Below, piece after piece: positions 4,264-56,358 of a stretch of 64,000 nt of DNA. Origin of the DNA: an uncultured Pseudomonadota bacterium (lineage in GTDB: Bacteria; Pseudomonadota; Alphaproteobacteria; RF32; CAG-239). The notes under the pieces are model-generated. The model was given only the letters and a program-made list of their open reading frames with translations. It searched no databases and was not told the origin of the DNA. The stretch lies in the NCBI GenBank assembly GCA_902763155.1, contig CACWQS010000002.1, positions 137,566 through 201,565 of the forward strand, read 5' to 3'. Position numbers and translations under genes: made by a program. Numbering within the stretch: position 1 is the stretch's first letter; each line of letters opens with the position of its first letter.

Positions 4264-4427
4264 TTTTTCAGCCTTCCTTATTCCTAATTGCTTAAAAGTA
4301 TATTAACAAAAAAAAGATAATCCACATCTAAAATTTTTTTATAAACATCTTTCTTTGTAACTATCTGTTTTTACGTTTTTATAAACAAAAGGTTAACATA
4401 AAAATTTCAAAAAAGTGGAAAACTTAT

Positions 4428-24347: not shown

Positions 24348-24348
24348 C

Positions 24349-25125: not shown

Positions 25126-25126
25126 C

Positions 25127-27009: not shown

Positions 27010-27235
27010 TTTCTAAAGCCTCACCCAGTTCTTCCACTTCCAGTTCATCCAAGTCTTCTGAAGCCACCGCATAACTGCCGTTAAACCATCGTCCCAAATC
27101 GACATCGGCACAACGCTTTGAACAAAAAGGAGCATACGCCGTATCGGTGTATATTTTTTTACAAATCGGACATTTGTGGATTTCGACAACTTCGCTCACG
27201 GCTCCACCCTTCCCGTACCGCTGCAAGTCGGACAT
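26987..27235 (-). CDS. yacG: zinc-ribbon DNA gyrase inhibitor YacG-like
   Basis: CPICKKIYTDTAYAPFCSKRCADVDLGRW. Confidence 0.65.
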   Translation of the reverse strand: MSDLQRYGKGGAVSEVVEIHKCPICKKIYTDTAYAPFCSKRCADVDLGRWFNGSYAVASEDLDELEVEELGEALENAHKSDK

Positions 27236-28359: not shown

Positions 28360-28932
28360 CTAAATTCCCTCCCCTTTTAATATATTCAATGTATCATAAA
28401 GCGGCAAGCCCACCACACCGGAATATGAACCCACTATCCGTTTCACATAGCCGGCAAGCCGTCCTTCAATCTTGTATCCGCACACGCCGCACCACTCTTT
28501 ACAAGCCACATAGTCTTCTATTTCCTGCGGTGTCAAAACCTTCATCGTAATCTTGGTGCTGATTGTGCGCTGTGATATTTTCCCTTGCTTATTTATCAAA
28601 CAAACTGAGCTGATAACACGATGCGTTTTACCGGAGAGCATCTGCATTACTTTGCGCTGTTCATCTTCATCTTTTGATTTATGCAAAATTTTCTGCCCGA
28701 CCACCACTACCGTATCGCAAGCCAAAATATTTTCACCTTCACGCAATACTGCTACATGTTTAGCTTTGTTCAACGCCATGCGCCGCACATAAGGAAGCGC
28801 CTTTTCATACAGCAAACAACTTTCATCAATATCCGCCGGTAAAATTTCTTTCGGTTCATAACACACCTGCCGCAATAAAGCAATTCGCTGCGGCGAACCC
28901 GAGGCTAAAATATAATCTTTTGCCGCCATCAT
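28360..28932 (-). CDS. maf: Maf-like nucleotide pyrophosphatase
   Basis: ILASGSPQRIALL N-terminus typical of the Maf family. Confidence 0.85.
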   Translation of the reverse strand: MMAAKDYILASGSPQRIALLRQVCYEPKEILPADIDESCLLYEKALPYVRRMALNKAKHVAVLREGENILACDTVVVVGQKILHKSKDEDEQRKVMQMLSGKTHRVISSVCLINKQGKISQRTISTKITMKVLTPQEIEDYVACKEWCGVCGYKIEGRLAGYVKRIVGSYSGVVGLPLYDTLNILKGEGI

Positions 28933-28941
28933 AAAATCAGC

Positions 28942-29367
28942 CTAAGCTTCGTCATCAAAAGTTTTTTCCATACGCTCATGGCGCTCTTGCGCTTCAATGG
29001 AAAGTGTGGCTACCGGACGTGCTTCCAAACGCTCAATTCCTATCGGTTCCCCAGTTTCTTCACAATAACCGTATGAACCGTCTTCGATGCGTTCTAATGC
29101 TTCGTCAATTTTGTTAATTAGCTTTCTGATTCTGTCTTTTGTTCTCAAATCAAGTGCCTTATCGGTTTCCAGCGATGCGCGATCAATCTCGTCCGGCTGG
29201 CTCAAACCACCCTGACGCAAATCTTCTAAGGTGTCAACCGATTGCGAAACTATCGATTTTTTCCAATTAACCAACTTCTGGCGGAAATATTCAAGTTGCA
29301 TTTCATTCATATATTCTTCGTCTGCCGAAGGTTTATAATCCGGTGGTAAAACAATAGATGTAGTCAT
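28942..29367 (-). CDS. dksA: DksA-family RNAP-binding transcription factor (lacking the Cys4 zinc finger)
   Basis: Coiled-coil with the conserved DxxDxA tip (DEIDRAS). The C-terminal domain has a single Cys (GYCEETGEPIG). Confidence 0.8.
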   Translation of the reverse strand: MTTSIVLPPDYKPSADEEYMNEMQLEYFRQKLVNWKKSIVSQSVDTLEDLRQGGLSQPDEIDRASLETDKALDLRTKDRIRKLINKIDEALERIEDGSYGYCEETGEPIGIERLEARPVATLSIEAQERHERMEKTFDDEA

Positions 29368-36457: not shown

Positions 36458-37426
36458 ATGGTTAAAACAATATGGGCGTTGATGGACGATCGCCGTGGCA
36501 GCGTAGGGCAAGCCAAAGGAATTTTAAATGCGCTCGATACCACAAAATTCAATATTATTGAAAAAAATATCAAATACACTCGTTTGGCCGGATTGCCGAA
36601 TATTTTACGCGGGCGCAGCCTGCTGGGTGTGGCCTCGGAAAGCCGACAGCATATAACCGCTCCTTATCCCGATATTGTGCTTTCCATCAGCCGCCGCACT
36701 GCCCCAATCGCTCGTTATGTTAAGAAAAAATCGCCACAGACAAAGTTGGTGCAACTGATGCACGCCGGCTCGGCCGGAATTAACGAATTTGATTTAATTG
36801 TGGTGCCGGAACACGACAAAAATAAGAAACAAACTCCGCAAATGTATTATATTATCGGTTGCCCGCATCGTATAACCGCCGAATATTTGCAAGAAGCACG
36901 CGCTAAATGGGAAAAAGAATTTGCCGATTTACCTAAACCGCTAACTGCGGTTATTGTCGGCGGAGCTATTAAAAAACATCAATTCAGCGCAGAAAATGCA
37001 ACTGCTTTGGCAACAGCGGTCAAAAGGCTCAAAAGCCAAATTGGCGGTTCCATCTTGCTTACCACCTCGCGTCGCACCGGTGAACAAGCACAAAAAATTA
37101 TAGTTAATGCCTTAAAAGATATCCCGCAATATAATTACCTGTGGGGCGATACACGTGAAAATCCGTATAGCGGTTTTTTGGCTTGTGCCGATAATATCAT
37201 TGTTACCGGCGATTCGGTTTCTATGTGTTGCGAAGCTACCGGTAGTGGTAAACCGATTTATGTGTTTAGAGGGCAAAATTGGCTTACTCCGAAACATGAA
37301 CGTTTTGTGCAATCTCTTTTGGATAATGGCTGTGCCGCACTTATAGAAGACGCCGATGCCAGCTTTAAGCCGCAAAAAAGCTTAAACGCCGCTGCTGAAG
37401 TAGCTGAACTGATTGAAAATTTATAA
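36458..37426 (+). CDS. ELM1/GT-B-like family protein (bacterial homolog of the mitochondrial fission ELM1 family; putative glycosyltransferase)
   Basis: The N-terminus TIWALMDDRRGSVGQAKGILNAL and its 322 aa length fit the family. Tentative. Confidence 0.45.
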   Translation: MVKTIWALMDDRRGSVGQAKGILNALDTTKFNIIEKNIKYTRLAGLPNILRGRSLLGVASESRQHITAPYPDIVLSISRRTAPIARYVKKKSPQTKLVQLMHAGSAGINEFDLIVVPEHDKNKKQTPQMYYIIGCPHRITAEYLQEARAKWEKEFADLPKPLTAVIVGGAIKKHQFSAENATALATAVKRLKSQIGGSILLTTSRRTGEQAQKIIVNALKDIPQYNYLWGDTRENPYSGFLACADNIIVTGDSVSMCCEATGSGKPIYVFRGQNWLTPKHERFVQSLLDNGCAALIEDADASFKPQKSLNAAAEVAELIENL

Positions 37427-43489: not shown

Positions 43490-43576
43490 GCCAATCCGAA
43501 TATGCGAACTCCCAGTCCGCTTGGTGTTTTTATAATATATTAACTCTTGGTTGATATAACAAAATTGAGGTGTGTT

Positions 43577-45625
43577 ATGAAAAAATTACTCTTAATGCTT
43601 GGAATATTCTTTGCTTTGCTTAAAAATGCGCAGGCTATTGATGAAAAAGAAAAAGAGATGTTTGACCGGTTTATTAATTTTACCGGAACTTATGAAGAAG
43701 ATTTACATCGTTTTAAGCAAAAACCATTGGTTGATTTAACCAAAGAAGAGCAAAAATCTGTTGCCGATTTTTCAATAGAGCGCAAAATTAATCCGCAATA
43801 TATTGAGAAATATGAGCAAGATACCAAACAGCAATATTCTCCAGCCGCAAAATTAAATCCATGGTTGGCAAGTTATTATGACACCGCATATTTTATTGAA
43901 TATTTGGAAAAAATTCCGGCACGCACTTTGGCACAAAAATATCAATTGTTGATTTTGTGGCAGATTTATAAACCGGAAAAAGTCGGTTCTGAAGAGTATA
44001 AAAAAATTGCCGAGTCCGCTCATGCCAAAACAATGGAATATTTGGCTGATGATGATAATTGGCAGGCTTCGTGGCGCCGTGAGGAATATGAAGAAATTGT
44101 GCAAGATGATTTTCAAAAGTGTTATGCCGATAAAAATTGCTTGGTAAAAGCTATTCCATATTGGATGGACTTACGTATTCCGATGAAAGTGATTTTGCCG
44201 TGCGATTTTGCTAAAGAGCATAATTTGTTATATTATTATGACGGTGCTGCAGGCGGTTCCGGTACTCAGGCAATTATGGTTTCTACATGTATTGCCGATG
44301 AAAAGTATAATTTTACACCGGAGCTTGATGCTTACATAGATAATGTGATTTCCGAAACCATACCTTACAGTTCTGGCTCAATAGTTAATGTATTTTATGC
44401 CAATGCCGATGCCCATTATTGGGATATAAAATATCAGCCGAATTTTAAAATCGATAAAATTGCCAATTGGCAGGAGTTTCCTTATACCGAATGGGCGGTG
44501 CAATCATATTATAATTTCAAAAAATTCAATAGTGTTATCAATAAAGGTGTCGGTTATAAGAAGGCCGTTGATATGCTTAAAGACCATTATGTAAAAGTAT
44601 TTAAAGCCAAACCGGAACAGGCCTTAAACGCAGCTTTAGTAACACTGAATCCACCGTCTTCATACGATTTTAAACGCATTACGCCGGATAATTTGAACTA
44701 TCTTTTGCTAATCGGAGCCGATTGGGAAAAAATTAAAGAGCAATTACCTGAAAACAATGACATAGCAGAATTGTTGGAATTAAGTATTGCCCATCCGCAG
44801 AACTTAAAACAACTCGTAAAACTAACAAAAAATGTCGATAAACCAAACAGTTTCGGTAAAACTCCATTGCAAACCGCCGCACAATACGGCTATTTTGAAA
44901 GTATTAAAATTTTACTTGATGCCGGTGCGGATATCAATCACCAAACTGTTGACTCCAATTGTTTTTCGGATTTTGAAATTGAGTGTATTCATAACGGCAA
45001 ACGCACGGCTTTAATGTATGCCTTACAAGAAAATCAGTATGAAACAGCAAAATATTTACTAGAAAAAGGTGCCGATATAACTTTAACCGATTCACAAGAA
45101 ATGACGGCACTTGATTATTTGATGAAAAAAGCGCCGAAATTCAGTACACACCGAACCGGAACAATTTACGGAGGTGAAGCTAATTGGCGAGAGCCGGAAG
45201 ATAATGAGAAACTGCCGACCGAACAATATGATGAGTTGTATAAACGTTTATTTTTCCATCAACAACCGCAAATCGCCGATGTTTTGGCTGGAAAATGGGA
45301 ATCAGAAGAAAAAGAAGAAACGGCTGTTTTTGAAAAAAATAACGATACCGATAAGCCTTTGTTAATTATTAAAAATGAACGTGGCGTATGGGCTGAATGT
45401 GATGCACAAGAAGATTCCCGCAACGTTTTTAATTGTATTTTTGAGCCGGATAAAGGCGATAAAAATAAATTTGATGTTTATTTTGCAATTTCTCATTATT
45501 ATAAGGATAAAGTAATCATATATTACAGTCTGGAACCGAATGTGCTTGATCGCTGTGTACAAGATGACGCTTGCGAACCTGAAATTTTAGCAACGCTGGA
45601 ACGAGAGGTAGAACACGATAAATAA
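43577..45625 (+). CDS. secreted ankyrin-repeat protein
   Basis: Signal peptide MKKLLLMLGIFFALLKNAQA. Ankyrin repeats, e.g. GKTPLQTAAQYGYFESIKILLDAGADINHQ and RTALMYALQENQYETAKYLLEKGADITL. Confidence 0.75.
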   Translation: MKKLLLMLGIFFALLKNAQAIDEKEKEMFDRFINFTGTYEEDLHRFKQKPLVDLTKEEQKSVADFSIERKINPQYIEKYEQDTKQQYSPAAKLNPWLASYYDTAYFIEYLEKIPARTLAQKYQLLILWQIYKPEKVGSEEYKKIAESAHAKTMEYLADDDNWQASWRREEYEEIVQDDFQKCYADKNCLVKAIPYWMDLRIPMKVILPCDFAKEHNLLYYYDGAAGGSGTQAIMVSTCIADEKYNFTPELDAYIDNVISETIPYSSGSIVNVFYANADAHYWDIKYQPNFKIDKIANWQEFPYTEWAVQSYYNFKKFNSVINKGVGYKKAVDMLKDHYVKVFKAKPEQALNAALVTLNPPSSYDFKRITPDNLNYLLLIGADWEKIKEQLPENNDIAELLELSIAHPQNLKQLVKLTKNVDKPNSFGKTPLQTAAQYGYFESIKILLDAGADINHQTVDSNCFSDFEIECIHNGKRTALMYALQENQYETAKYLLEKGADITLTDSQEMTALDYLMKKAPKFSTHRTGTIYGGEANWREPEDNEKLPTEQYDELYKRLFFHQQPQIADVLAGKWESEEKEETAVFEKNNDTDKPLLIIKNERGVWAECDAQEDSRNVFNCIFEPDKGDKNKFDVYFAISHYYKDKVIIYYSLEPNVLDRCVQDDACEPEILATLEREVEHDK

Positions 45626-45647
45626 TGATATTTCACATGCAAATCAA

Positions 45648-46097
45648 CTATAACTTTTTCACATACACCCGGGTTGGTTTACCCTCGCGGGTGGGCATGG
45701 TCTGCCAAAAGGTAAAGCCGTATTTCTCGTAAAGGCCGACCTCGTCGGTGGAAATATATACTTTTTCGGTTCCGGCGGATTTTAACACTTCGCAAATGTG
45801 GGCAATTAACTTGCCGGCGTTGCGATGACCGCGATAGGCCGGAAAGGTATATACAAACCCGATCCACGGCGACAGTTCCGGTGCGTCAATTTCATCTTGC
45901 GGCGCCAAAGTGGCAAACGAAACCAGCTTATCGCCGGCGGTCAGCATATAAACCTCGGCCGCATCTCCGCTTATCTGCTTTAATTTATCGCTCTTCAACC
46001 AGTTGTGCAACAATTCCGCCGCCGACCAATCGCCTTTGCCGATTTCTTCCCGCCAATGTGCCTGATTTTCCGATTGATAATACTTGATAACCTGCAT
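45648..46097 (-). CDS. GNAT family N-acetyltransferase
   Basis: Acetyl-CoA binding motif RGHRNAGKLIAHICEVLK. Confidence 0.75.
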   Translation of the reverse strand: MQVIKYYQSENQAHWREEIGKGDWSAAELLHNWLKSDKLKQISGDAAEVYMLTAGDKLVSFATLAPQDEIDAPELSPWIGFVYTFPAYRGHRNAGKLIAHICEVLKSAGTEKVYISTDEVGLYEKYGFTFWQTMPTREGKPTRVYVKKL

Positions 46098-46168
46098 TTT
46101 GCCTCATACTTCATAGTTGCGATATTTGCAAACTATAAACCTTTAAATATAACTTGCCAAGTACATAG

Positions 46169-46198
46169 TTCATAGTTTTGAAATTTTAAAACTATGAA
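46169..46198. promoter_or_regulatory. 30-bp near-perfect palindrome in the divergent GNAT/dinB intergenic region
   Basis: TTCATAGTTTTGAAATTTTAAAACTATGAA. 14 of 15 positions are self-complementary. A CATAGTT direct repeat lies immediately 5'. Confidence 0.3.
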
Positions 46199-46267
46199 GT
46201 TAGAAAAAATTTCCTCTTTTTAACTCACCAAATATTATTGACTCTCAAAATTTCTGCGCTAATAATA

Positions 46268-46282
46268 GAACAGAAATAGAAC
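46268..46282 (+). promoter_or_regulatory. candidate alphaproteobacterial LexA (SOS) box GAAC-N7-GAAC upstream of dinB
   Basis: GAACAGAAATAGAAC, 15 nt upstream of the dinB ATG. Confidence 0.55.
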
Positions 46283-46296
46283 ATTGAAGAGGTAAA

Positions 46297-47454
46297 ATGC
46301 GCCAGCACGTTATTGCATTGGTTGATTGCGACTGCTTTTTCGTTTCTTGCGAACGAAAGGATAACCCCGATTTGCAGGGCAAGCCGGTGTGCGTTATGAC
46401 TGGTGCCACCAGTAAAGGTATTATCGTTTCCCGTTCCAAAGAAGCCAAAGCACTCGGGATTAAAATGGGGCAGCCGTATTTTCAGGTTAAACCGAACTTT
46501 CCGACCGCGATTTGTATTCCGGCGCGCCACCACCGCTATACCGAAATTTCCAAAGAAGTGATGGACACCATCAAAACTTTCAGTCCGGATGTCGAAGTGA
46601 CTTCGGTTGATGAAGCTTTTATTGATTTAACCAGCCTCAACAAAGTTTATCACTCGACATATACCGATATTATCAAAAATATCCGCCAGACGGTGTGGGA
46701 CAAGGTCGGAATTCCGGTATCTATCGGGTTGGGAACTTCTAAAACATTGGCTAAATTGGCGAGCGATAAGGCCAAGAGCAACAACGGCATTTTCGTTATT
46801 TCGCCGGATAAAATCTTGGATATTGTGGGCGAAATGCCGATTGAGGACGTTAGCGGTATCGGGCGCAAAAACAGCGAGCACATGAAGTTCAGCGGTATCT
46901 TTACGATTAAGGATTTTGTGGAGAAAGAAAACGGCTGGATACGGAAAGCCTTCGGAATTAACGGATTAAATTTGAAAAGTGAGTTGACTGGTGTTGCGAC
47001 ATCTTTGGTCAACAACGAACCCACCGCCCCACAGAGCATACAGGTAACGCGGAGTTTTGAGGACTTTACGCAGAGTTTGGAGTATTTAGAACATGAACTG
47101 AACCGGCATGTTCACGAGGCTTGTCAGAAGTTGCGGCAGTGGAACGGATTTTGCCAAGGGGTGGAAGTTATGCTCCGTACGAAAGACTTCAAATATCTCG
47201 CCATCGAGGCGAAACTGCCGAACCCGACCAACGGCGACCAGGAAGTTCGCATAACCGCCATAAACCTCTTAAAACAACTCTACCGCCCGAATTTAATTTA
47301 TCGCTCCACCGGCGTAACTCTGACACACTTAACCTACGGCGAAATCCAACAATCGTTGTTTGAGGAGGTAAAACCGCACGACGACAAACTCTCGCACCTC
47401 GTTGATGAACTGGAAGCCAAATTCGGCAAAGGCATTGTTAAGACCGGGGTGTAA
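46297..47454 (+). CDS. dinB: DNA polymerase IV (Y-family)
   Basis: Start of protein ALVDCDCFFVSCE, and motif SIGLGTSKTLAKLAS. Confidence 0.9.
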   Translation: MRQHVIALVDCDCFFVSCERKDNPDLQGKPVCVMTGATSKGIIVSRSKEAKALGIKMGQPYFQVKPNFPTAICIPARHHRYTEISKEVMDTIKTFSPDVEVTSVDEAFIDLTSLNKVYHSTYTDIIKNIRQTVWDKVGIPVSIGLGTSKTLAKLASDKAKSNNGIFVISPDKILDIVGEMPIEDVSGIGRKNSEHMKFSGIFTIKDFVEKENGWIRKAFGINGLNLKSELTGVATSLVNNEPTAPQSIQVTRSFEDFTQSLEYLEHELNRHVHEACQKLRQWNGFCQGVEVMLRTKDFKYLAIEAKLPNPTNGDQEVRITAINLLKQLYRPNLIYRSTGVTLTHLTYGEIQQSLFEEVKPHDDKLSHLVDELEAKFGKGIVKTGV

Positions 47455-47490
47455 AAATAAATCCACGTAACCCGCATATTTTACTGAACG

Positions 47491-47733
47491 ATGCGCAAAT
47501 ATAAGGATATCAAGCCAAGCAACCGGACAAACTTTGTGATGGTCTATTATCACGCCGGACGCACATTAACTCAAATCGAAACTTTACTAAAAAAGGCCTA
47601 CGGCAACCCACTACCGGTCAGACCTCGCGACCGCTTGAACCGCCTGCAATTCAAACTCGAACAAATGGCTGTCCGGTATAAACAATGCCAAAATGAGCTT
47701 CATATTCAGTATCAAAAACAGAAAGAAAAATAG
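47491..47733 (+). CDS. small basic hypothetical ORF (possible remnant of a mobile-element HTH)
   Basis: 80 aa, K/R-rich. Uncertain whether it is expressed. Confidence 0.25.
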   Translation: MRKYKDIKPSNRTNFVMVYYHAGRTLTQIETLLKKAYGNPLPVRPRDRLNRLQFKLEQMAVRYKQCQNELHIQYQKQKEK

Positions 47734-47759
47734 TTATTGTTTTTTTAAGATTCCTTGTT

Positions 47760-48010
47760 TATAGTTAATTTCGTTAGGACAGCCCAAGTCCTGACAGGAC
47801 ATTGACAGTCTAATCGCTATGGGCAAAACATAACTTTTGTGTTACGTTGTAATATAAAAGACGATTGCCATATTGGGCATCTCACCGTAACGGGTGGATG
47901 CCAGTGAATAAGGCATATACCCAATAGCTGGGCTACTTATCATAGCGATTGTAGTGTCAACGTCCACCCACCTTACAAGGTGGGTGAATTTGTTTGGGCT
48001 GATTGGTAAT
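47760..48010. ncRNA. GC-enriched, highly self-complementary noncoding stretch (candidate structured RNA or decayed element)
   Basis: Long-range pairing AATCGCTATG (about 47812) with CATAGCGATT (about 47943). Hairpins GGCATCTCACC..GGGTGGATGCC and CACCCACC-TTACAA-GGTGGGTG. Local GC is clearly above its surroundings. Confidence 0.2.
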
Positions 48011-48015
48011 TCAGT

Positions 48016-48468
48016 TTGAGCATATGCGCGTTTTTCGGCCACCGCGACACCCCGATGTCATCTTCAATAGAAAACCATTTATCGGAAGTTGTCAGAGGCT
48101 TAATTATAAATCATGATGTAACTGAATTTTGGCTTTGTGAACAAGGAACGTTTGACTGCTTGTCGCGTCTTGTAATGAATGAACTAAAAAAAGAATTTGA
48201 ATATATAACTCTTTGCATATTTCCCGCATATTATCCAAATAACGCCAAACTTGATTGGATGGATGATAATAATTACGATTTGATGTATCCTGATGAAGTA
48301 GCCAAAGCGCCACCGCAAGTTGCTATTTTACGTCGCAACGAATATATTGCTAAAAATGCCGATTATATTGTTTGCTACATAAACCGTAAATCAGGCGGAG
48401 CCTATAAGGCAGTTGAAATTGCGAGAAAATACGATAAAAAAATAATCAACCTCGCCGAGTATATTTAA
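48016..48468 (+). CDS. YpsA/DUF1273-like (SLOG superfamily) protein
   Basis: The AFFGHRDTP N-terminus and 150 aa length resemble YpsA/YoqJ-type SLOG proteins, often phage-associated. Tentative. Confidence 0.45.
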   Translation: MSICAFFGHRDTPMSSSIENHLSEVVRGLIINHDVTEFWLCEQGTFDCLSRLVMNELKKEFEYITLCIFPAYYPNNAKLDWMDDNNYDLMYPDEVAKAPPQVAILRRNEYIAKNADYIVCYINRKSGGAYKAVEIARKYDKKIINLAEYI

Positions 48469-48512
48469 TTCAAGCCTTACAGCTTCAAATGTTCTAAAAA
48501 CGCCTGATTATC

Positions 48513-49097
48513 TCAACAAATTTTACGGACACTTTTGCAAGGAACGCCATAAGCTAAAGTGTTGGCAGGAACATCTTTTGTAACAACACTTGCGGCACCG
48601 ATGATTGAATTATCGCCTATGCTGACACCCGGAAGGATTGTAACATTTGCGCCAATCCATACATTTTTACCGATTTTAACCGGTTTAGGCATAGCATTAC
48701 ATCTTTTTTCAGGGGCAAATTCATGGTTCAGTGTAACAATCGTAACATTACTACCCAGCATTGAATTATCACCGATTTCTATTCCGCCATTATCTTGAAA
48801 ATGGCAACAGGTATTGATAAAAACCTTTTTCCCCAGTTTGATATTTTTGCCGAACTCGGTGTAAAAAGGTGGCAATATCAGGCAATCTTTATCGACTTTG
48901 CGCGCAATCAGCTCAGAAAACAGCGCTCTGACTTCTTCAGGTGTGTGGTATTTATTATTCAATTCCATCGTGATTTTTAGAGCTTCTTGACCATATTCAT
49001 AAAAAGATTGTAACAAATCCGTCCCGAATATCATCGGTGTTCCTTTTTTCATTATAGCTCTGATTTGCGGTATGCTTAATATTTTTTTACCCATCAT
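48513..49097 (-). CDS. hexapeptide-repeat sugar O-acetyltransferase (Maa/LacA-like)
   Basis: Left-handed beta-helix repeats and IGDNSMLGSNVTIV...GKNVWIGANVTILPGVSIGDNSIIGAASVV. Confidence 0.8.
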   Translation of the reverse strand: MMGKKILSIPQIRAIMKKGTPMIFGTDLLQSFYEYGQEALKITMELNNKYHTPEEVRALFSELIARKVDKDCLILPPFYTEFGKNIKLGKKVFINTCCHFQDNGGIEIGDNSMLGSNVTIVTLNHEFAPEKRCNAMPKPVKIGKNVWIGANVTILPGVSIGDNSIIGAASVVTKDVPANTLAYGVPCKSVRKIC

Positions 49098-49560
49098 TAT
49101 TCTCCTTAAGTAAATACTCTAAAAATGCCTGACAGCCTTCATAAATATCCCAATAGCTCTCGTCAAAGTTTCCGGTATACCAAGGGTCGCGGATGTTGCG
49201 TGGGTGGTCTGTAAAATCTAATAAGCGGTGGATTTTGTGCTCTGTATCCGGACCGACGAGCGATTGAATGTCCTCAATGTTGCTGTCGTCCATCGCCAGA
49301 ATATAGTCATAATAAGCGTAATCGCGCAGGCGAATTTGCCGCGAATAATGCTCCTCGAACGGAATTTGCATGGCTTTCAGCTTGTCGCGGGTGCCGTGAT
49401 GAATGCCGGCATGACACATCTCATTGTAACTTTCGGTCGCGGCGGAATCTATTTCAAACTGATCGGATAAACTGCGCTCCTCAACCATCTGCTTAAACAC
49501 AAACTCCGCCATCGGCGACCGACAAATATTCCCCAGACATACAAACAAAACTTTAATCAT
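49087..49560 (-). CDS. low-molecular-weight protein-tyrosine phosphatase
   Basis: P-loop VLFVCLGNICRSPMAE and a DP motif further down. Confidence 0.85.
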   Translation of the reverse strand: MIKVLFVCLGNICRSPMAEFVFKQMVEERSLSDQFEIDSAATESYNEMCHAGIHHGTRDKLKAMQIPFEEHYSRQIRLRDYAYYDYILAMDDSNIEDIQSLVGPDTEHKIHRLLDFTDHPRNIRDPWYTGNFDESYWDIYEGCQAFLEYLLKENNDG

Positions 49561-49679
49561 AAAGACATCTCCCAACCTTAGAGTATATGATTAATTTAAA
49601 ATTACAAGATTCTTTTTGACATCTCGCATTTTGCGATGATAATTAAAGCAACTGATATTTTTGGAAAAGGAGATAAAAA

Positions 49680-50024
49680 ATGCCGTACATTGAAGCAAAA
49701 ATGAGCATTAAACTGGATGAAAACCAGAAAGACGCGTTGCAAAAGAAGTTAACCTGCGCCGTATCGGTCGCATTTGGCAAGCCGAAAGCCTACATTATGG
49801 CGTGCATAGAGGACGACAAATCGCTGTATATGGCGGAGCGGAAGCTCGAAAAAGGTGCCTACATCGCTATTCGGCTGCTTGGTTCGGCGTCTAAATCGGC
49901 GTGTCAGGGCTTAACTGGCGAAATTTGCCGCATTTTACAAAGCGACTATGGTATTGATGGCGCAAATGTTTATATCACCTACCACCCAACCGACCTTTGG
50001 GGTTGGAACGGCGGAATGTTTTAA
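49680..50024 (+). CDS. MIF (macrophage migration inhibitory factor)/tautomerase-family protein
   Basis: 114 aa with Pro at position 2 (MPYIE...). AFGKPKAYIMACI resembles MIF ATGKPPQYIAVHV. The C-terminus NVYITYHPTDLWGWNGGMF resembles MIF [22 protein letters not shown]. Confidence 0.55.
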   Translation: MPYIEAKMSIKLDENQKDALQKKLTCAVSVAFGKPKAYIMACIEDDKSLYMAERKLEKGAYIAIRLLGSASKSACQGLTGEICRILQSDYGIDGANVYITYHPTDLWGWNGGMF

Positions 50025-50039
50025 TTATATATAGCAAAA

Positions 50040-50726
50040 TCAAGCATATTGTGCCAATAAATCTTTCCAAACCTGCGGCGCATCTATTTCATCAAAATAG
50101 GTTTTCAAAAAATTGACAATTACTTCATGTCTTTTTTCTATAAATCTGCGCCCCGGTTCGGTCAAAGCCATACTGCGCAACCGAAACAGTTTATCAAAAA
50201 AATGATTTACAATCGGGCAATAAGTTATTTTCTTATATTTTTCCGCATCCATTTCTACCGGCAGATAATCGGGATCAAAAAACGGCTCATTACCACCCGA
50301 ACGATGGGCGCGGTATTCAATACAACGAATAACCCCTATTAAGCCGGTTGCATCGGCCATATCCGCATCAGAAACTATCTTGCCTTCTATACAATCCGGC
50401 ACAATCCCGCTCAAACGCTTGCTGTAGCCGATTGTTTTAACAATTTTGAGACAATTATTGATAAAATCATCGTCAAATCCCGATTTTGCCAATATACGAC
50501 ACGTATTTGTTAGCAAACGCGCAGATTCTTCTCCGAATAATTTATAATCGTCGCAGTCATGCAACAGAGCCGCGGCAGCAACCAAATCACGATTGGCATC
50601 ATTAATCTCATCGCAAAATTTCATGGCATTTTCATAAACGCGAAATACATGCTTATCATCATGCCCGCTAAAATCATTATGCAACAACTCAAAAACAGCT
50701 TGTTTTATATACTCTATACCGCTCAT
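50040..50726 (-). CDS. HD-domain phosphohydrolase
   Basis: H...HD motif region (AAALLHDCDD) and a conserved D further down. Confidence 0.7.
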   Translation of the reverse strand: MSGIEYIKQAVFELLHNDFSGHDDKHVFRVYENAMKFCDEINDANRDLVAAAALLHDCDDYKLFGEESARLLTNTCRILAKSGFDDDFINNCLKIVKTIGYSKRLSGIVPDCIEGKIVSDADMADATGLIGVIRCIEYRAHRSGGNEPFFDPDYLPVEMDAEKYKKITYCPIVNHFFDKLFRLRSMALTEPGRRFIEKRHEVIVNFLKTYFDEIDAPQVWKDLLAQYA

Positions 50727-50744
50727 ATAAATCTCCTCTGATGT

Positions 50745-51434
50745 TTATATTTTAAGTCGGCGCCTGTGTTTTACAACCGCAAAAGCGTGGCTTTCTTTGA
50801 GTAGCTCAAACAAAACCTCGTCCGGCACAGTATCGTCAAGTGTAATTGTAAGCCAATTTTTCTTATTCATATGATACGCCGGATAAAAGCCGGCCTGCTT
50901 GTGCAATTCCGGTATTTTCGCCTCATTTAATTTAATATTCATTACCTCAACTTCACAGGAAAGCTTTTTATTTAACTTGCTTCGATCGATGCTCATAATC
51001 AGCGCATACCATTTGCCGTTATCCGGATTTTTGAAAACTCCGTAATTGCAGTTTTCCCACGGGAAAACCGGCGCGTCACCGTAAGCGTCAAAAATTGCCT
51101 GCGTTAAGCGGTTGGCCTGCGAATGCACAAAATAGTTAATCCGGCAACAATTTGCTTTGATTCTTTCCAAAATCTTTTGATATTCGGCACGCACTTCGCC
51201 GGCAAAACCCTCCATATCTTCAACGCGCAACGGCAAAAATTCATCATCGGTGGCTGTTTCAAGCACTTTTCCGGAAACATTACTTTGCGGGGTAATATTT
51301 ACCACTGCTTTAAAATCGCCATCCATAAACAGCTCGCTATACGTCCACTTGCCGTCAGACTTGATAAATCCGAACTTTTCAAGCCGACCAAAATCAATAA
51401 TCGTGCGTTTAAATATCTTATCTTCTATGGTCAT
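50745..51434 (-). CDS. MmcQ/YjbR-family protein with an N-terminal extension
   Basis: The C-terminal ~120 aa (PWENCNYGVFKNPDNGKWYALIMSID...KKNWLTITLDD) resemble MmcQ/YjbR. Confidence 0.55.
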   Translation of the reverse strand: MTIEDKIFKRTIIDFGRLEKFGFIKSDGKWTYSELFMDGDFKAVVNITPQSNVSGKVLETATDDEFLPLRVEDMEGFAGEVRAEYQKILERIKANCCRINYFVHSQANRLTQAIFDAYGDAPVFPWENCNYGVFKNPDNGKWYALIMSIDRSKLNKKLSCEVEVMNIKLNEAKIPELHKQAGFYPAYHMNKKNWLTITLDDTVPDEVLFELLKESHAFAVVKHRRRLKI

Positions 51435-51460
51435 AATTTACCTCTTGTCTCTGAGCATAA

Positions 51461-51799
51461 ATGTTTCTGCGCAAAATTGCAAATCTATTCAAAAAATTTT
51501 TACATTTCGCTACCGATTATGCCGTTATTACGGAAGACAGAAAATCCCAAGCAAAAAAGCGCGGCAAAGCAAGAGACAACAAATACGCACCGTTTCGCAA
51601 ATATTTTAAAAATTTGCAACAACAAAAATTTATAGAATTTAAAAATGCAGGACTTGTATTAAAAGCAAGCGAATTCTTGTATTGGTTTTTAGAAAATAAA
51701 ACAGAAGAAATCGTAATACCATATAAAAAAAGTAATCAATATTATAAATTGATAGGGTTAGCTCAAGAAAATAACAGAGAGTTTAAAAAGTACCTATAG
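51461..51799 (+). CDS. basic hypothetical protein
   Basis: 112 aa, K/R-rich. Its stop abuts the start of the next gene. Weak RBS. Confidence 0.3.
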   Translation: MFLRKIANLFKKFLHFATDYAVITEDRKSQAKKRGKARDNKYAPFRKYFKNLQQQKFIEFKNAGLVLKASEFLYWFLENKTEEIVIPYKKSNQYYKLIGLAQENNREFKKYL

Positions 51800-51800
51800 A

Positions 51801-52211
51801 ATGCAAGAGGCACTTACCTCGCTTCGCAGTATATTTTATTTGACGTGTTTTGATGTATTTTTTGTTTATGCTTTTTTATTAAAGAAAATGAAAGAACAAC
51901 AGAAGATATCTTATTTATTTTCCAGCAAACATATAAAATTACTTGAAGTCGTTATCAGTAATTTGTTTTATTACTTATGTTGGGTTATAATAGGATTTTA
52001 TTTTATAAGTATGAGTATAAATATAATTTCTTTGTATTTTGACCCTTACGATATGGATAGTTGCTTGGATACGGGTATTTGTAGAGAAGGTATTACTTTT
52101 GACAATTGCGAAGACGGTCTACCATGTACCATAACCAAAGAAAGTTGTATAGAAAATAGCAATATATGGCTTGAGGATATCCGTAGTTGTGACATTAGGC
52201 ACAACATTTAA
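51801..52211 (+). CDS. small membrane protein with C-terminal DSCLDxG Cys-rich tail (paralog of 12520..12801)
   Basis: TM helices, then MDSCLDTGICREGITFDNCEDGLPCTITKESCIEN. Compare VDSCLDAGKVWDYEQKICRDDCLTWNEKIGC at 12.7 kb. Confidence 0.45.
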   Translation: MQEALTSLRSIFYLTCFDVFFVYAFLLKKMKEQQKISYLFSSKHIKLLEVVISNLFYYLCWVIIGFYFISMSINIISLYFDPYDMDSCLDTGICREGITFDNCEDGLPCTITKESCIENSNIWLEDIRSCDIRHNI

Positions 52212-52444
52212 AATATCAATATTTGGGAATTTTTACTTGCGTATTAGGTAATTATTCGGTAACTATCCGGTAAATATTCGGAAATAAAACGCAAAAAACT
52301 TGCGCTTAGGGCTTTGCTAAGCAAGGAATTGCCGAAGAAAACTACCCGCAGTATGGCACAAATTTTTGGGGTGGTTCGCCGGAAAATAACTACGGTTTCG
52401 GCACTTCAAACATAAGCGGCAATATTGAAAATGTTACAAACCAG

Positions 52445-53155
52445 TTGAATAATGATGGATTTGGTGGCGGAGTAAGCAACGGTTTCGGTAGCGGAGCGAG
52501 TAATAGCGGTTTTGGTAACGCACCAACCAACAGCTACGGAAATAATCTCAACAATAATCAAACCAATAACGGATATAATTATACAACTGATATTCAAAAA
52601 CAGCAGTGTATTGATTCGTCTGGAATGCAATGCACACCGCAAAATAACAATAATTCTGCCAATATGACATCTAGGTATCCGGATTATTCACAACCGGCAT
52701 CTTTGGAATTTGACGGGCAGAATTTGGTTTGGTTGCAAAATGGTCAACCGGTAAAGTATTATCCGGCAGTATCAGGAAGAGCAGATTATCAAAGTGCTCA
52801 ATACACAAATGAAAGGAAAAGGGGTCCTATTCCTGAAGGAGATTATTTGTTAGGTCAAGGGACCGGAGAAGATTATAACAATAAAGAAGAAATGTCTTGG
52901 TGGAGAAAATTTGTACCATGGAATGATAATCCTTGGTATGAAAATCCTGCGGCATGGGGGAAATCTCGTATTCCTATTCAACCGCTCCCTACCACGAATA
53001 CATTCGGCCGGCATAGTATGTATGTCCATGGTGGGAATGTTCCCGGTTCGGCAGGTTGCATAGATTTAACTTATGCTAATGATGATTTCTATAATGATTT
53101 TAAAAATTATAATGGAACTTTACCTCTCAAAGTCAAGTACAAAAAAGGTTGGTAA
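52445..53155 (+). CDS. L,D-transpeptidase-fold (YkuD/Tlde1-like) domain protein with a Gly/Asn-rich N-terminus. Likely a toxin cassette, and the 5' end may be truncated
   Basis: The C-terminal domain carries YYPAVSGRADY...GPIPEGDYLLG...GRHSMYVHGGNVPGSAGCIDL, a His/Cys catalytic pair in LD-transpeptidase-like spacing. The only in-frame start is TTG at 52445. The frame stays open and is still G/N-rich (NYPQYGTNFWGGSPENNYGFGTSNISGN) back to a stop at 52307, with no ATG. Confidence 0.5.
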   Translation: MNNDGFGGGVSNGFGSGASNSGFGNAPTNSYGNNLNNNQTNNGYNYTTDIQKQQCIDSSGMQCTPQNNNNSANMTSRYPDYSQPASLEFDGQNLVWLQNGQPVKYYPAVSGRADYQSAQYTNERKRGPIPEGDYLLGQGTGEDYNNKEEMSWWRKFVPWNDNPWYENPAAWGKSRIPIQPLPTTNTFGRHSMYVHGGNVPGSAGCIDLTYANDDFYNDFKNYNGTLPLKVKYKKGW

Positions 53156-53162
53156 TTTTAAG

Positions 53163-53193
53163 GAAGGCAGGGAAAAATTCCTTGCCTTTTTTA
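53163..53193 (+). terminator. terminator-like hairpin after the toxin-domain ORF
   Basis: AAGGCAGG-GAAAAATT-CCTTGCCTT followed by TTTTTT. Confidence 0.45.
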
Positions 53194-53244
53194 TTATTTA
53201 TTTTATATATTGAATCACAATACATTATTAGCAGAAGGTGTGAA

Positions 53245-53580
53245 ATGTTTACAAAATTTAAAAAATATATGAAGGTTATTGCATATATTATCTTTACTTT
53301 GGTTGAACTCTTTTATATTAGAATAATCTTTGCACTTTATAATGCTATTCAAATCACCAGAGATGGTGGCTTTGTTAAATCCATTGATGAGAATAATCCC
53401 GTTTGGTATTATCAGTCTGAAGATAATATGATTTTACATGATAAAGTATTAATTGGTGGCTTTTTGTTATTTTTGATATTACCATTTATTTTTATCCGTA
53501 AACCGCAATGGGCTATATTATTGCAAGTCTTTTGGCTGGTGTTGGCTATTATCGAAGGATACTATATAAAATCATTATGA
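53245..53580 (+). CDS. small 3-TM membrane protein (candidate immunity/accessory)
   Basis: MFTKFKKYMKVIAYIIFTLVELFYI.... RBS AGGTG. 111 aa. Confidence 0.45.
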   Translation: MFTKFKKYMKVIAYIIFTLVELFYIRIIFALYNAIQITRDGGFVKSIDENNPVWYYQSEDNMILHDKVLIGGFLLFLILPFIFIRKPQWAILLQVFWLVLAIIEGYYIKSL

Positions 53581-53606
53581 CAAAACAGCCTTTTAGGAGC
53601 AATCAA

Positions 53607-53933
53607 ATGAAAATCACCTTTCAAAAAATTAAGAATGTAGGTAAATACTTTATTTTTGGTCTTTTATACATCTTTGGAATACTCAACTTATATTTCTTTT
53701 GGTTAAGAGCATGGCGCGTAAAGGATGTTATGAATTATACTGATGCAAATTATAAAGGATATCTTGATATCATTGAAATGTACGTTGGTTATATAAGCGG
53801 ATGGTCTATTTTATTTATAATATCATTTGTGTATTCGCTTATTTATATTAAAAATAAATCCTTATATGCATTCATGTGGCTATTTTTACCCGTAATTTAT
53901 TTGTTAACTTTAGCATATCATGAATATTTATAG
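53607..53933 (+). CDS. small 3-TM membrane protein (candidate immunity/accessory)
   Basis: MKITFQKIKNVGKYFIFGLLYIFGI.... RBS AGGAG. 108 aa. Confidence 0.45.
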   Translation: MKITFQKIKNVGKYFIFGLLYIFGILNLYFFWLRAWRVKDVMNYTDANYKGYLDIIEMYVGYISGWSILFIISFVYSLIYIKNKSLYAFMWLFLPVIYLLTLAYHEYL

Positions 53934-53972
53934 GAAGATTTCTTGGCAGTAAATATCCGAAGGAGGATTGCG

Positions 53973-54185
53973 ATGAACTCATACGACGATATATTAAAAA
54001 GAATTGGTAAATATATAGGATATACTATACTCTTTATTCTTTCTTTGATTATAATAGGTGTAGTTGCAGGTATTACTTGGTACGCACTAACCGAACATAG
54101 CTATAAAGATTGTGATAATCAATTTATCAATGGTTGTATGTCAGCAGGGTTAAGTGAAGAAGTCTGTAAAGGCAGAGTTTATTAA
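53973..54185 (+). CDS. small 1-TM membrane protein with YKDC...C tail
   Basis: RBS GGAGG. TM helix, then HSYKDCDNQFINGCMSAGLSEEVCKG. Paralog of the next gene. Confidence 0.45.
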   Translation: MNSYDDILKRIGKYIGYTILFILSLIIIGVVAGITWYALTEHSYKDCDNQFINGCMSAGLSEEVCKGRVY

Positions 54186-54203
54186 GCTGTGAGGATTTAT
54201 TGG

Positions 54204-54431
54204 ATGACAGAAGAACACCAAATATGCGTAAAGCAAATATTAGATAAAGCAGTTAGCGGTATTTATAAAATTGCACTTTATTGTATCGTATTTGTTTTAA
54301 TCTGTGTTATAGCTTTCTTTTTCTTATATCCGCATTATCAGGAATATGCATACAAAAAAGATTGCTTGCAAAACGGGCACCAAAAAGAATGGTGCGAGAA
54401 GACGTGGCAGGAATTATTAGAGTTGGATTAA
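54204..54431 (+). CDS. small 1-TM membrane protein with YKKDC...C tail
   Basis: TM helix, then YAYKKDCLQNGHQKEWCEKTW. Paralogous to 53973..54185. Confidence 0.4.
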   Translation: MTEEHQICVKQILDKAVSGIYKIALYCIVFVLICVIAFFFLYPHYQEYAYKKDCLQNGHQKEWCEKTWQELLELD

Positions 54432-54837
54432 ATCTATCAAGCAGGCTTGTCAGAAATGGCAAGCCTTTAAAATACAACACATTAATTTAAAGGTATCCGG
54501 TTTCGCCTTTGGTATATGATTGCCATGTATATGGCACGTTTCGGAAGATTTTTGCCATTGCCGCGGAATTATATCGCAAATTCAAAGCATTATAAAGAGA
54601 GTTATTTTCCACTACCGTTTCAGGCGTTTTAGTACAAATCAAGCGGATTTACGGAATTTCAAAAGACAAAGACATCGTGGTTTTGATTATTAAGGGCGAC
54701 GAGATTGGCTTGATTTTTTGTTAAAAAATCTGCGCCGCTGCGTCGGCTTTATACGGCGATACTCCCGTCTCGCCAAGCCTCCTTGTCAAACACGCTCCCT
54801 TGCGTGTTCGCACCTTATTGCACGCAATCTACAAATG

Positions 54838-54867
54838 CAAAAAAGCCACCTAAAATGGTGGCTTTTT
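54838..54867. terminator. bidirectional terminator hairpin 3' of tRNA-Pro
   Basis: AAAAAGCCACC-TAAAAT-GGTGGCTTTTT. Confidence 0.7.
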
Positions 54868-54874
54868 GTGTTTG

Positions 54875-54951
54875 TGGTCGGGGCGACATGATTCGAACAC
54901 GCGACATCTTGGACCCAAACCAAGCGCTCTACCAGGCTGAGCTACGCCCCG
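54875..54951 (-). tRNA. tRNA-Pro (anticodon UGG), CCA encoded
   Basis: Reverse complement CGGGGCGTAGCTCAGCCTGGTAGAGCGCTTGGTTTGGGTCCAAGATGTCGCGTGTTCGAATCATGTCGCCCCGACCA. Acceptor CGGGGCG/CGCCCCG. Anticodon loop UUUGGGU. Confidence 0.85.
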
Positions 54952-55176: not shown

Positions 55177-56358
55177 TCAGAAGAACTTCTTTTCAGTTGT
55201 TCTCAAAAGATAGTCCTCAAATTTCTGAGATGTCCTGTCATACCCACCACCGAGGAAGTACTTATAGTCCTCGAGCATCATGCTGATACCGGAATCGTAG
55301 TCCTCCGGTGTGAACGATGCGCGGGCAAACAAGTCGCTGAGGATAATGTTCTCTACTGCGGTCTCGTGATCCACTCCATAGAGCAACTCCTGATAGTTGG
55401 GCCATCCCATATTGGAATAGTTCACAATAAGGTCGTAGAACATTTCCCAATCAGCCTCTGCCACGCCTGGCATAAGGTAACGCTCGGGGCGCTCGCTTGT
55501 GGTCTTGCCATCAAACGTGATGGTGTCCTTATACAAAGGACCAAGACTGGCGGCGATATAACCCATGGCAATCTCCGAACCTACCTGAGCCTCGGGAATT
55601 ACGTAACGATTATACGAATACCACATTGGGCAATGAGCCAAAACCAGATTGATGCGCACCTCGGAGAACTTTTCCTGGCGCAGTTGCCACATCCACTCGG
55701 CAAGCAAACGCTTGTCGTAATATGGATTGCCGCTAACCATAACGAAGGTTACCTCGTCAAGGCTACGCATTTTAGCGAACTCATAGAGTTCAACAAGATT
55801 TCCCTCGGTGTCATCATCATCACACAAGGTATAATTCTCATACACCCAATTACGATCACCCAACTCGTCCATAATTGCATAATAAGAGTCATACTCCGTT
55901 TTGCGAATCAGACCTTCCATGCGGTAGAATAGGTCGACAAATAATCCTTTGTTTCCCTCCTTACCGGAAGAAATAAAAGGAAGCAACTGACCGGTCTTCT
56001 TGGCGTAGAAACGCAGAGCCTCGAAAGCATACAGCGGGGCGTGCATAACACCTGAGAAGCAGTAGAGGAATGGGTTCACCATACCCTCCGGCAAGTCGTA
56101 GAGATCAACCACGCGAGCGATTGATATACCGCCCTGTGCATTGGGATATGTAAACTCTTCACCGGGCTTCAAACCACCCAATTCTTCGGCGGCATTAAAG
56201 AGAGCTGCTGACCACTCAATGCGGCGCGGCTTAAGTACATTAACGCGTTCAGCCATGAAGGCACGACCGGCAGCGTTACAACGAGATTTGTTCTCACCAT
56301 GTAGGAGTTCTTTGAACTCCGCCTCAGAAACATTGAGGCAGTCATAATACTTTTTCAT
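55177..56358 (-). CDS. hypothetical protein with atypical (GC-rich) codon usage. Has an acidic DDDD segment, possibly a DxD-type transferase
   Basis: 393 aa. GC-ending codons are enriched, and local GC is about 10 points above the neighbours by eye. YTLCDDDDTEGNL segment. No family recognised. Confidence 0.5.
   Translation of the reverse strand: MKKYYDCLNVSEAEFKELLHGENKSRCNAAGRAFMAERVNVLKPRRIEWSAALFNAAEELGGLKPGEEFTYPNAQGGISIARVVDLYDLPEGMVNPFLYCFSGVMHAPLYAFEALRFYAKKTGQLLPFISSGKEGNKGLFVDLFYRMEGLIRKTEYDSYYAIMDELGDRNWVYENYTLCDDDDTEGNLVELYEFAKMRSLDEVTFVMVSGNPYYDKRLLAEWMWQLRQEKFSEVRINLVLAHCPMWYSYNRYVIPEAQVGSEIAMGYIAASLGPLYKDTITFDGKTTSERPERYLMPGVAEADWEMFYDLIVNYSNMGWPNYQELLYGVDHETAVENIILSDLFARASFTPEDYDSGISMMLEDYKYFLGGGYDRTSQKFEDYLLRTTEKKFF

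Follow-up and report, generated by a model that had tools for sequence, protein, structure and literature searches.

A probable mosaic flexible region downstream of tRNA-Pro, with a predicted structured leader RNA before a YpsA-like gene, in an uncultured rumen alphaproteobacterium

The locus raised the question of whether a stretch of roughly 9 kb (45630-54870) that adjoins the 3' end of a tRNA-Pro gene in an uncultured alphaproteobacterium is one genomic island, as an earlier note made from the sequence alone had proposed, or a region put together in another way. The stretch was analysed within a 64-kb window (the whole stretch of DNA examined, to which all coordinates refer) and was compared with metagenome contigs of relatives, designated here by L numbers. 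With a probability of about three in four, it is a mosaic flexible region downstream of tRNA-Pro in which modules were gained, lost or swapped separately and the left half holds two regulatory units. The elements that carry this reading are an exact junction (J1) beside a conserved noncoding element of about 165 nucleotides (nt), a strain-specific toxin cassette, and a structured leader RNA upstream of a gene for a YpsA-like SLOG protein. Taken as an island, the stretch would be ordinary genome plasticity. The comparison does indicate the place and manner in which competition and defence genes are exchanged in an uncultured rumen alphaproteobacterium, with at least five kinds of DNA at one exact junction, and the leader RNA is the more useful result of the analysis.

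Exact copies of the tRNA-Pro neighbourhood were found in L001-L004, which are contigs from three different samples, and the arrangement in the window is therefore not an assembly chimera. Among named genomes, those nearest to the window came from rumen and gut samples and were labelled as uncultured Alphaproteobacteria or 'Rhodospirillaceae'. The closest relatives (L019-L023) were reached with the inositol monophosphatase gene as synteny anchor, and the products of their rho, coaE, dnaQ, ampG and monophosphatase genes were 96-100% identical to those of the window. Identical gene order without indels was not observed in the relatives. Because L019-L021, despite flanking proteins of this identity, showed several replacements and indels inside the stretch, the stretch is considered flexible. 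The synteny comparison thus favoured a flexible accessory region but not a single island, since the relatives vary inside the stretch without doing so as one unit.

Homology did not break at the tRNA. The tRNA-Pro gene was borne out at the right end of the stretch on the minus strand by ARAGORN and Rfam, and its sequence was identical across L019-L023. Homology with these contigs and with 12 metagenome contigs ran past the tRNA to 54482, which contradicts the proposed integration at the tRNA 3' end; in L019-L021 it already began at the right edge of the window (64000). The 393 bp past the tRNA end comprised a terminator, a polymorphic spacer and the 165-nt element. The hairpin directly after the tRNA was kept in relatives, in some with a different sequence, and reads as a bidirectional terminator, while the spacer occurred in at least three unrelated or diverged versions. 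As the earlier note had stated, no integrase or recombinase domain was found with Pfam in any open reading frame (ORF) of 45630-54870, and the last 16-40 nt of the tRNA, allowing up to 20% mismatch, had no match anywhere in the window. Profiles of GC content, skew and tetranucleotides, proposed there as a check, did not set the stretch apart from the window (GC 0.390 vs 0.398, tetranucleotide distance inside the range of the window); the toxin cassette alone was AT-richer (GC 0.338). In addition, the left end at 45630 was not a demonstrated boundary, as L020 has a Fic/MerR gene instead of the GNAT gene there. Presence or absence as one unit was contradicted by at least five independent breakpoints and a conserved middle block.

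The right-hand breakpoint was placed exactly. A 24-nt probe from J1, the surroundings of which read ...GGATACCTTTAAATTAATGCCGTAAAAAT..., matched 12 further metagenome contigs, and 16 contigs diverged at the same base into at least five continuations. Allele A is the toxin cassette of the window, with a reduced form carrying a different toxin in L025. In allele B (L019-L021) the 2.2-kb cassette is replaced by 1.84 kb with an MBL-rubredoxin gene and a membrane ORF. Allele C (L024, L027, L029, L031) starts with an array of diverged repeat units followed by variable genes, which are a DUF2924 gene and a large serine recombinase of 571 amino acids (aa) about 0.7 kb from J1 in L029 and L031, an MvaI/BcnI restriction-modification pair flanked by repeat units in L027, and APH and methyltransferase genes in L024. 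Allele D (L028, L034) has an ADP-ribosylglycohydrolase gene and then directly YjbR, with orf136 and orf112 absent; it matches the recombinase allele for 11 further bases and may represent the empty site, and no attR was recovered. In allele E (L035) only the last ~33 nt of the 165-nt element (54481-54512) recur, with a different left context formed by another toxin-immunity cassette and with orf136 on the right.

The 165-nt element was near-invariant in the 16 contigs and the adjoining spacer was polymorphic. A promoter scan located a promoter-like site (TTTATA-17-TATAAT, 54596-54568) in the element, directed into the variable slot. The element was rejected as a small protein gene (its substitutions were not codon-like and no start codon was conserved) and as a stable RNA fold (folding-energy z scores near zero, 0.17 and 0.47). 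The J1 core had no second copy, either in the window or in any locus. Downstream of J1 in L029, L031, L027 and L032, three to five diverged copies of a repeat unit were present, each with a promoter-like sequence (TTGCC-N17-TGGTATAAT) and, after it, a short hairpin plus U tract. These copies were found by blastn and by eye and were not detected by Tandem Repeats Finder.

Further left, the segment 49112-52278 (orf136, orf112, YjbR, the HD hydrolase, the MIF-like tautomerase and LMW-PTP) showed 96.4% nucleotide identity in the closest relatives, and single genes changed at its borders and beyond. In more distant alleles the segment is broken up, and L034 carries restriction-modification genes after YjbR in place of the HD gene and a DUF2130 gene inserted before LMW-PTP. 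The hexapeptide acetyltransferase gene, bounded by imperfect 21-bp direct repeats (49112-49132 and 48487-48507), was absent from L019, L020 and L036 and present in L034, and its indel alters the C-terminal residues of LMW-PTP. In L020 the SLOG gene, noncoding block, basic ORF (91% aa identity) and dinB (90%) are retained, with the GNAT gene swapped for the Fic/MerR gene and homology stopping at about 46102. In L019 a flagellin-like gene is found from 48042 leftwards. L036 keeps dinB, the noncoding block, the SLOG gene and LMW-PTP, followed by a MuF-domain gene cluster, and an HXXEE-domain gene replaces the 5' half of the basic ORF. Seen across these contigs, the 9 kb consists of modules strung together, and the breakpoints fall at gene boundaries.

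A second insertion point was found at the tRNA itself in other strains. Copies of the post-tRNA spacer in L024 (~2685-2821), L025 (892-1012) and L030 (243-324), given with the junction probe on the plus strand, start at CGACCA, with which tRNA-Pro ends, and the tRNA body before it is replaced by unrelated DNA. Since they begin at CGACCA without the tRNA body, these strains are taken to have insertions exactly at the tRNA 3' end; L024 and L025 have the preceding element end in common before the tRNA-less spacer copy. Judged from the aligned contigs, the tRNA-Pro neighbourhood is a genuine insertion hot spot in the lineage, with J1 and the CGACCA end of the tRNA as its two insertion points. Neither point has a recognisable mobile element in the window. 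A 24-nt motif, ACCAAGCGGACTGGGAGTTCGCAT, was observed at 43502-43525 between the BASS transporter and ankyrin genes; its sole other occurrence was in L030, 53 nt before the tRNA-less spacer copy, and it is faintly like the 3' half of a tRNA. Its position, some 2 kb to the left of 45630, might be that of an older boundary.

One old, degraded island that entered at the tRNA-Pro 3' end through a lost tyrosine integrase and covers ~45.6-54.9 kb or slightly more would agree with the position beside a tRNA, the mixed accessory-type content, the strain variation and the insertions at the tRNA end in L024, L025 and L030, and the 24-nt motif recurring in L030 could mark its older, more distant boundary. 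Such an island is improbable, given that the window has neither an integrase nor a tRNA 3' repeat, that composition equals that of the rest of the window, and that the tRNA-proximal 393 bp and 49112-52278 are common to the closest relatives while the parts vary independently; the 24-nt motif occurs just twice and bears little genuine resemblance to tRNA-Pro. The strain-variable and hot-spot-associated character claimed for the island was upheld, whereas a single island integrated at the tRNA 3' end was not. The locus is like tRNA-linked islands and regions of genome plasticity in that strain-variable accessory genes adjoin a tRNA and mobile elements lie nearby in other strains, but the window differs from them by the lack of an integrase, att repeats and a compositional signal, by a main junction 393 bp from the tRNA and by module-by-module variation. 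The exact junction common to five allele types also brings to mind an integron-like platform, in which the 165-nt element would supply an outward promoter and an attachment site, a serine recombinase would insert promoterless cassettes and the repeat units would act as cassette borders. The promoter-like site is directed into the slot, the first genes follow its direction in the recombinase, restriction-modification, APH and ADP-ribosylglycohydrolase alleles, and the restriction-modification pair of L027 is flanked by repeat-unit copies. Against this, in the window and in L019-L021 the neighbouring genes point towards the promoter, the repeat units resemble modules of promoter and hairpin and not recombination sites, the conserved platform includes no recombinase (no IntI), none of the cassettes has a second copy of the core beside it, and ordinary recombination can likewise leave abrupt ends of homology where a conserved functional element stops, which makes such a platform very improbable.

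The large serine recombinase was absent from the window, and L029 and L031 carry it past the same junction. A large serine recombinase with a DUF2924 gene next to it is the arrangement of the integration module of Wolbachia prophage WO (PMC11376236). L029 and L031 are like that module in having both genes near J1, whereas the window is without both and no complete two-ended element was recovered. By position only, the recombinase gene suggests serine-recombinase integration at J1 in other strains.

In this mosaic flexible region, the tRNA, terminator, polymorphic spacer and 165-nt element make up the unit kept across strains, and the slot after J1 has strain-dependent content, with the toxin cassette in the window and other genes elsewhere. 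Single genes are gained and lost at gene boundaries, as with the hexapeptide gene, HD versus restriction-modification, and GNAT versus Fic. The cassette may have arrived by homologous recombination in conserved flanks, namely the 165-nt element on one side and orf136 with its upstream repeats on the other; alternatively, it may be the remnant of a recombinase-borne element. Several points weigh against the mosaic reading. For the cassette of the window the contigs gave no att pair, no empty site and no circular form, and the exchange mechanism is deduced. The comparison sequences were all metagenome contigs with strain relationships not established. No relative obtained reaches the ankyrin/BASS side, which leaves room for a larger old island.

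The noncoding block before the YpsA-like gene had been described as structured and GC-enriched. Folding against shuffles agreed with the first description (z -6.7 on the plus strand and -8.5 on the minus strand), and the GC enrichment was real but modest (0.444 vs 0.398 in the window). The block was resolved into a predicted leader with a promoter-like site, a 5' hairpin (P1), closing helices, a terminator hairpin and an alternative helix (Table 1). Promoter boxes similar to that of the window were found at the same distance in L041, L043 and L046 and were weak in L044. The P1 loop pairs with TTGGGCT (47994-48000) just past the U tract, as does AGCCUAA with UUAGGCU in L043, and this pairing was backed by one compensatory change and one wobble change. 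Neither the terminator nor helix 6 nor the base of helix 3 can form together with the alternative helix, which was paired in all 7 sequences with two covarying pairs. A start codon (TTG, ATG or GTG) lies within ~30 nt after the terminator hairpin and U tract.

The structure was assessed on a covariation alignment (A3). RNAalifold predicted 62 pairs from the 7 sequences, 18 of them with compensatory changes. The final structure, which adds the 5' hairpin and treats the P1-loop pairing as a pseudoknot, had 69 pairs with 92.3% of the cells paired. Pairs changed on both sides numbered 22 (of 69), compared with 1-8 when the partners were slid by one to three columns, and none of 500 shuffles reached the values observed. 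One 12-bp helix covaried at 8 positions and was never broken, the differences between the leaders of the window and L020 were mostly compensatory changes in one long helix, and the G-U pairs favoured the plus strand.

The leader was also present upstream of SLOG homologs with 46-83% identity in five further contigs. In these it lies beside dinB and LMW-PTP (L036), beside a TrbC-like gene and EF-Tu (L041), between uvrD and rsmA (L043), beside tRNAs and a flavodoxin gene (L044), and beside an aminotransferase gene and dnaJ (L046), and the noncoding DNA before the SLOG gene was 285-670 nt long. L047, with a 40%-identical SLOG gene and an upstream gap of 100 nt, did not have the leader. A search of Rfam 15 (4227 families) gave no match over 20 kb at E <= 0.1; the 300-nt block had no meaningful match even at E <= 10, and the leader positions of four relatives had none. 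The viral contig scan with the leader segment gave no match, and searches of the literature for an RNA motif or riboswitch associated with DUF1273 or SLOG proteins gave nothing relevant. From folding and covariation, the leader is a previously undescribed, well-supported structured RNA, absent from Rfam. Elsewhere in L041, a 6S RNA match (5202-5359, 49.1 bits) scored above the gathering score.

The YpsA/SLOG-like gene assigned by the earlier note was supported by its homologs and by a structure model. The protein itself had no Pfam match at E <= 0.01, but 26 of 37 aligned homologs matched PF06908 (best 9.2e-07). The model (pLDDT 96.2) had as its top PDB match B. subtilis YpsA, 2NX2 (E 4.8e-06, TM 0.66), with ShosA, DprA and the SLOG domain of ThsA as further fold matches. 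The N-terminus carries the conserved sequence xICAFFGHRD. The protein is thus predicted to be like B. subtilis YpsA in its best structural match, in most homologs matching PF06908 and in the GHR motif near the N-terminus; it differs from YpsA in being alphaproteobacterial, in lacking its own Pfam match and in its identity of 9% in the structural alignment. A PDB sequence search with the SLOG profile gave nothing meaningful, and the viral contig scan with the SLOG protein gave no match. To our knowledge, no ligand or biochemical role has been assigned to the YpsA family. As a sensor RNA before the gene, the leader would offer a direct experimental route to the molecule involved. The YpsA papers found concern Gram-positive bacteria (PMC6459960).

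On the reading adopted here, the leader would attenuate transcription of the YpsA-like gene in the manner of a riboswitch. It can form either the terminator or the competing helix and would sense a signal. With riboswitches and terminator-antiterminator leaders it has in common a covarying multi-helix fold, a constant place before one gene family, an intrinsic terminator and a competing helix; unlike riboswitches, it matched no Rfam family and was seen so far in one gut alphaproteobacterial lineage only. The more specific suggestion, that it is a new riboswitch class terminating transcription of the SLOG gene in response to a small molecule, plausibly nucleotide-derived, is put forward tentatively and is on balance unlikely; if true, the ligand would reveal the signal or substrate of the poorly understood YpsA-like family. 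The attenuator reading is weakened by an alignment of 7 distinct sequences, 4 of them close to one another, by the lack of a ligand on record, and by the fact that a protein-binding leader or a separate small RNA would yield the same covariation.

That the block is no cis-acting sensor at all, being instead an independent small RNA gene (e.g. a partner or antidote) or a leader bound by the YpsA-like protein itself in autoregulation, is doubtful. In favour of it are the block's own promoter-like site, its terminator plus U tract, and the nucleic-acid binding of SLOG relatives such as DprA and ShosA, both found as fold matches. B. subtilis YpsA is described as harmful when overproduced (PMC7376506), and tight RNA-based control or neutralisation would be plausible for that reason. 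A separate small RNA agrees less well with the pairing of the P1 loop, whose partner lies after the U tract and just before the ribosome-binding region, which points to the read-through mRNA as the form in which the RNA acts; competition between a conserved helix and the terminator is in turn the signature of attenuation. Autoregulation by the YpsA-like protein is fully compatible with the data.

Table 1. Positions of the features in and beside the stretch, from left to right in the window.
Feature	Position	Strand	Basis or remark
GNAT acetyltransferase	45648-46097	-	Pfam
dinB/IMS, Y-family polymerase	coding sequence 46297-47454; unit with promoter and LexA box 46238-47454	+	Pfam
80-aa basic ORF, pI 10.2	47491-47733	+	no assigned function
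Promoter-like site for leader, TTGTTT-17-TATAGT	47737-47765	+	read from sequence; not reported by consensus scan
Predicted structured leader RNA of YpsA-like gene, ~230 nt	47773-48000	+	folding, covariation
Hairpin P1	47773-47795	+	loop AGCCCAA
Closing helices	47797-47822 with 47940-47965	+	enclose three inner hairpins
Alternative 9-bp helix	GGGTGGATG (47892-47900) with CGTCCACCC (47961-47969)	+	alignment
Terminator hairpin, GC-rich, plus U tract	47966-47985	+	terminator scan
YpsA-like SLOG gene, 150 aa, TTG start	48016-48468	+	homologs and structure model
Single-gene indel, hexapeptide acetyltransferase	48487-49132	-	comparison of contigs
Hexapeptide acetyltransferase	48513-49097	-	Pfam
LMW-PTP	49087-49575	-	Pfam
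MIF-like tautomerase	49680-50024	+	Pfam
HD hydrolase	50040-50726	-	Pfam
YjbR	50745-51434	-	Pfam
orf112	51461-51799	+	part of conserved block
orf136	51801-52211	+	part of conserved block
Strain-specific toxin cassette	52279-54481	+	blastn breakpoints, junction sequences, GC 0.338
YkuD/Tlde1-like toxin, 236 aa	52445-53155	+	Pfam
Four small membrane-protein ORFs	53149-54431	+	hydrophobic segments
Junction J1	54481/54482	.	point after ...CCTTTAAATTAA with at least five different continuations
Conserved ~165-nt noncoding element	54482-54645	-	comparison of contigs
Polymorphic spacer between tRNA terminator and conserved element	54646-54839	.	comparison with relatives
Hairpin flanked by A and T runs, directly after tRNA	54840-54867	.	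terminator scan and sequence
tRNA-Pro, anticodon TGG	54875-54951	-	ARAGORN; Rfam tRNA 60.8 bits

The cassette consists of an upstream region, the Tlde1-like gene, four membrane-protein genes and a terminator hairpin (~54444-54470). The toxin has a Gly/Asn-rich low-complexity N-terminus and a C-terminal domain of the YkuD/Tlde1 family (LD-transpeptidase fold), scoring 32.6 bits with YkuD (cut-off 23.4), and its motif comprises H190 and H195 followed by S-A-G-C205-I. The catalytic motif of Tlde1a is HXX14-17-(S/T)HGCh (PMC9638812). The domain had 1238 relatives among representatives at 50% identity, nearly all with it at the extreme C-terminus of carriers of 73-2649 aa. Of eight relatives scanned, six passed the Tlde1_dom cut-off, three were fused to RHS-repeat carriers (two of these with SpvB/TcdB regions) and three others had LysM or peptidoglycan-binding domains. 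This is a polymorphic-toxin pattern, as the domain is C-terminal on varied carriers including Rhs, SpvB and TcdB. A PDB sequence search with the toxin gave nothing meaningful.

The longest frames of the four membrane ORFs were 143, 141, 80 and 80 aa (111, 108, 70 and 75 aa with the gene caller), and none had a Pfam match. In L025, L035 and L036, genes homologous to the two 80-aa ORFs lie with other toxins, serum-amyloid-A-domain proteins among them; because they sit beside different toxins, the 80-aa ORFs fit immunity or orphan-immunity genes. The four ORFs are candidate immunity proteins, some of them perhaps orphan. The toxin would be a secreted, peptidoglycan-targeting competition factor from which the downstream membrane proteins would protect the producer. 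The cassette is like Tlde1 effectors of a type VI secretion system (T6SS) and polymorphic toxin cassettes in its LD-transpeptidase fold with a catalytic cysteine and its C-terminal relatives, and like polymorphic toxin-immunity cassettes in its small downstream genes at the immunity position and in being swapped among strains. The cassette differs in that the toxin motif is SAGC and not (S/T)HGC, that the Gly/Asn-rich N-terminus is no known delivery domain, and that four membrane-protein genes are found and not one periplasmic immunity protein, and no T6SS genes were seen among the annotated part of the window. The assignment as a secreted toxin is made less certain by a score below the Tlde1_dom cut-off for the window protein alone (27.7 vs 30.1 bits), by the replacement of the second histidine of the (S/T)HGC motif with alanine, and by the fact that neither a secretion system nor an experimentally supported immunity gene was identified for it. 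No T6SS domain was found among the ~40 window proteins scanned, a part of the gene content of a window that covers only 64 kb of the genome.

Upstream of the toxin gene (52212-52444), several copies of a TT(A/C)CCGAATAAT-like motif were observed, with an equivalent region in L019 and L020, and homology with relatives tapered off across them. These copies may serve as operators or as a substrate for cassette exchange. A serum amyloid A domain was also seen at the C-terminus of a 259-aa low-complexity protein inside a toxin-like cassette of L035, and a protein with this domain (PF00277) is encoded at 12009-12533 (+) of the window.

The direct repeat GTTC-N7-GTTC is the LexA (SOS) box of Alphaproteobacteria. 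A LexA-type box, GAACAGAAATAGAAC, was found at 46268-46282 between a promoter-like site (46238-46266) and the start codon of dinB, and this pattern had two matches in the 64-kb window. It was kept before dinB in six relatives, among them L020, L036 and L007-L009, where the DinB of L007-L009 was only 47% identical. The conserved box at the promoter supports the SOS-regulated dinB proposed earlier, and dinB is predicted to be damage-inducible because it lies behind it. The arrangement, with a predicted GAAC-N7-GAAC box between promoter-like site and start codon, is like that of other alphaproteobacterial LexA-controlled dinB genes. The term alphaproteobacterial SOS box also occurs in Caulobacter SOS papers.

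All genes named in the earlier note were found at their places, the domain-bearing ones with Pfam. The 'eukaryote-like' genes of the stretch were present, but the label is loose, as MIF-type tautomerases and LMW-PTPs are common bacterial families. Other genes of this description lie left of the stretch, namely a full-length match to the ELM1 mitochondrial-fission family (PF06258) at 36458-37426 (+) and a 692-aa ankyrin-repeat protein at 43547-45625 (+). PADLOC run on 10 proteins from the region gave zero defence-system matches. The window also encodes coaE-dnaQ, rho, secA and the Mla operon. The genes lgt/ybjN (3454-4973) and the Mla-RNase G-Maf-DksA cluster (23784-29367) were ~19 kb apart in the window and only ~1.8 kb apart in L012 (80-95% protein identity). 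Gene order in the lineage is generally fluid on the contigs compared, with heavy rearrangement in one other relative of the genus.

Finally, right of tRNA-Pro, the gene at 55177-56358 (-) encodes a 393-aa protein of a family without a Pfam domain. Its model (pLDDT 94.9) had no PDB fold match (best Foldseek E 0.05, TM 0.16), and a PDB sequence search with the family gave nothing meaningful. The gene failed as a synteny anchor, as its homologs at 59-87% identity were in unrelated neighbourhoods; those at 76-85% identity occupied three unrelated neighbourhoods, two of them with a similar terminator stretch just downstream. Its counterpart in L019 and L020 was only 61% identical, compared with 96-100% for the flanking proteins, and the gene looks like one that was replaced or moved on its own.

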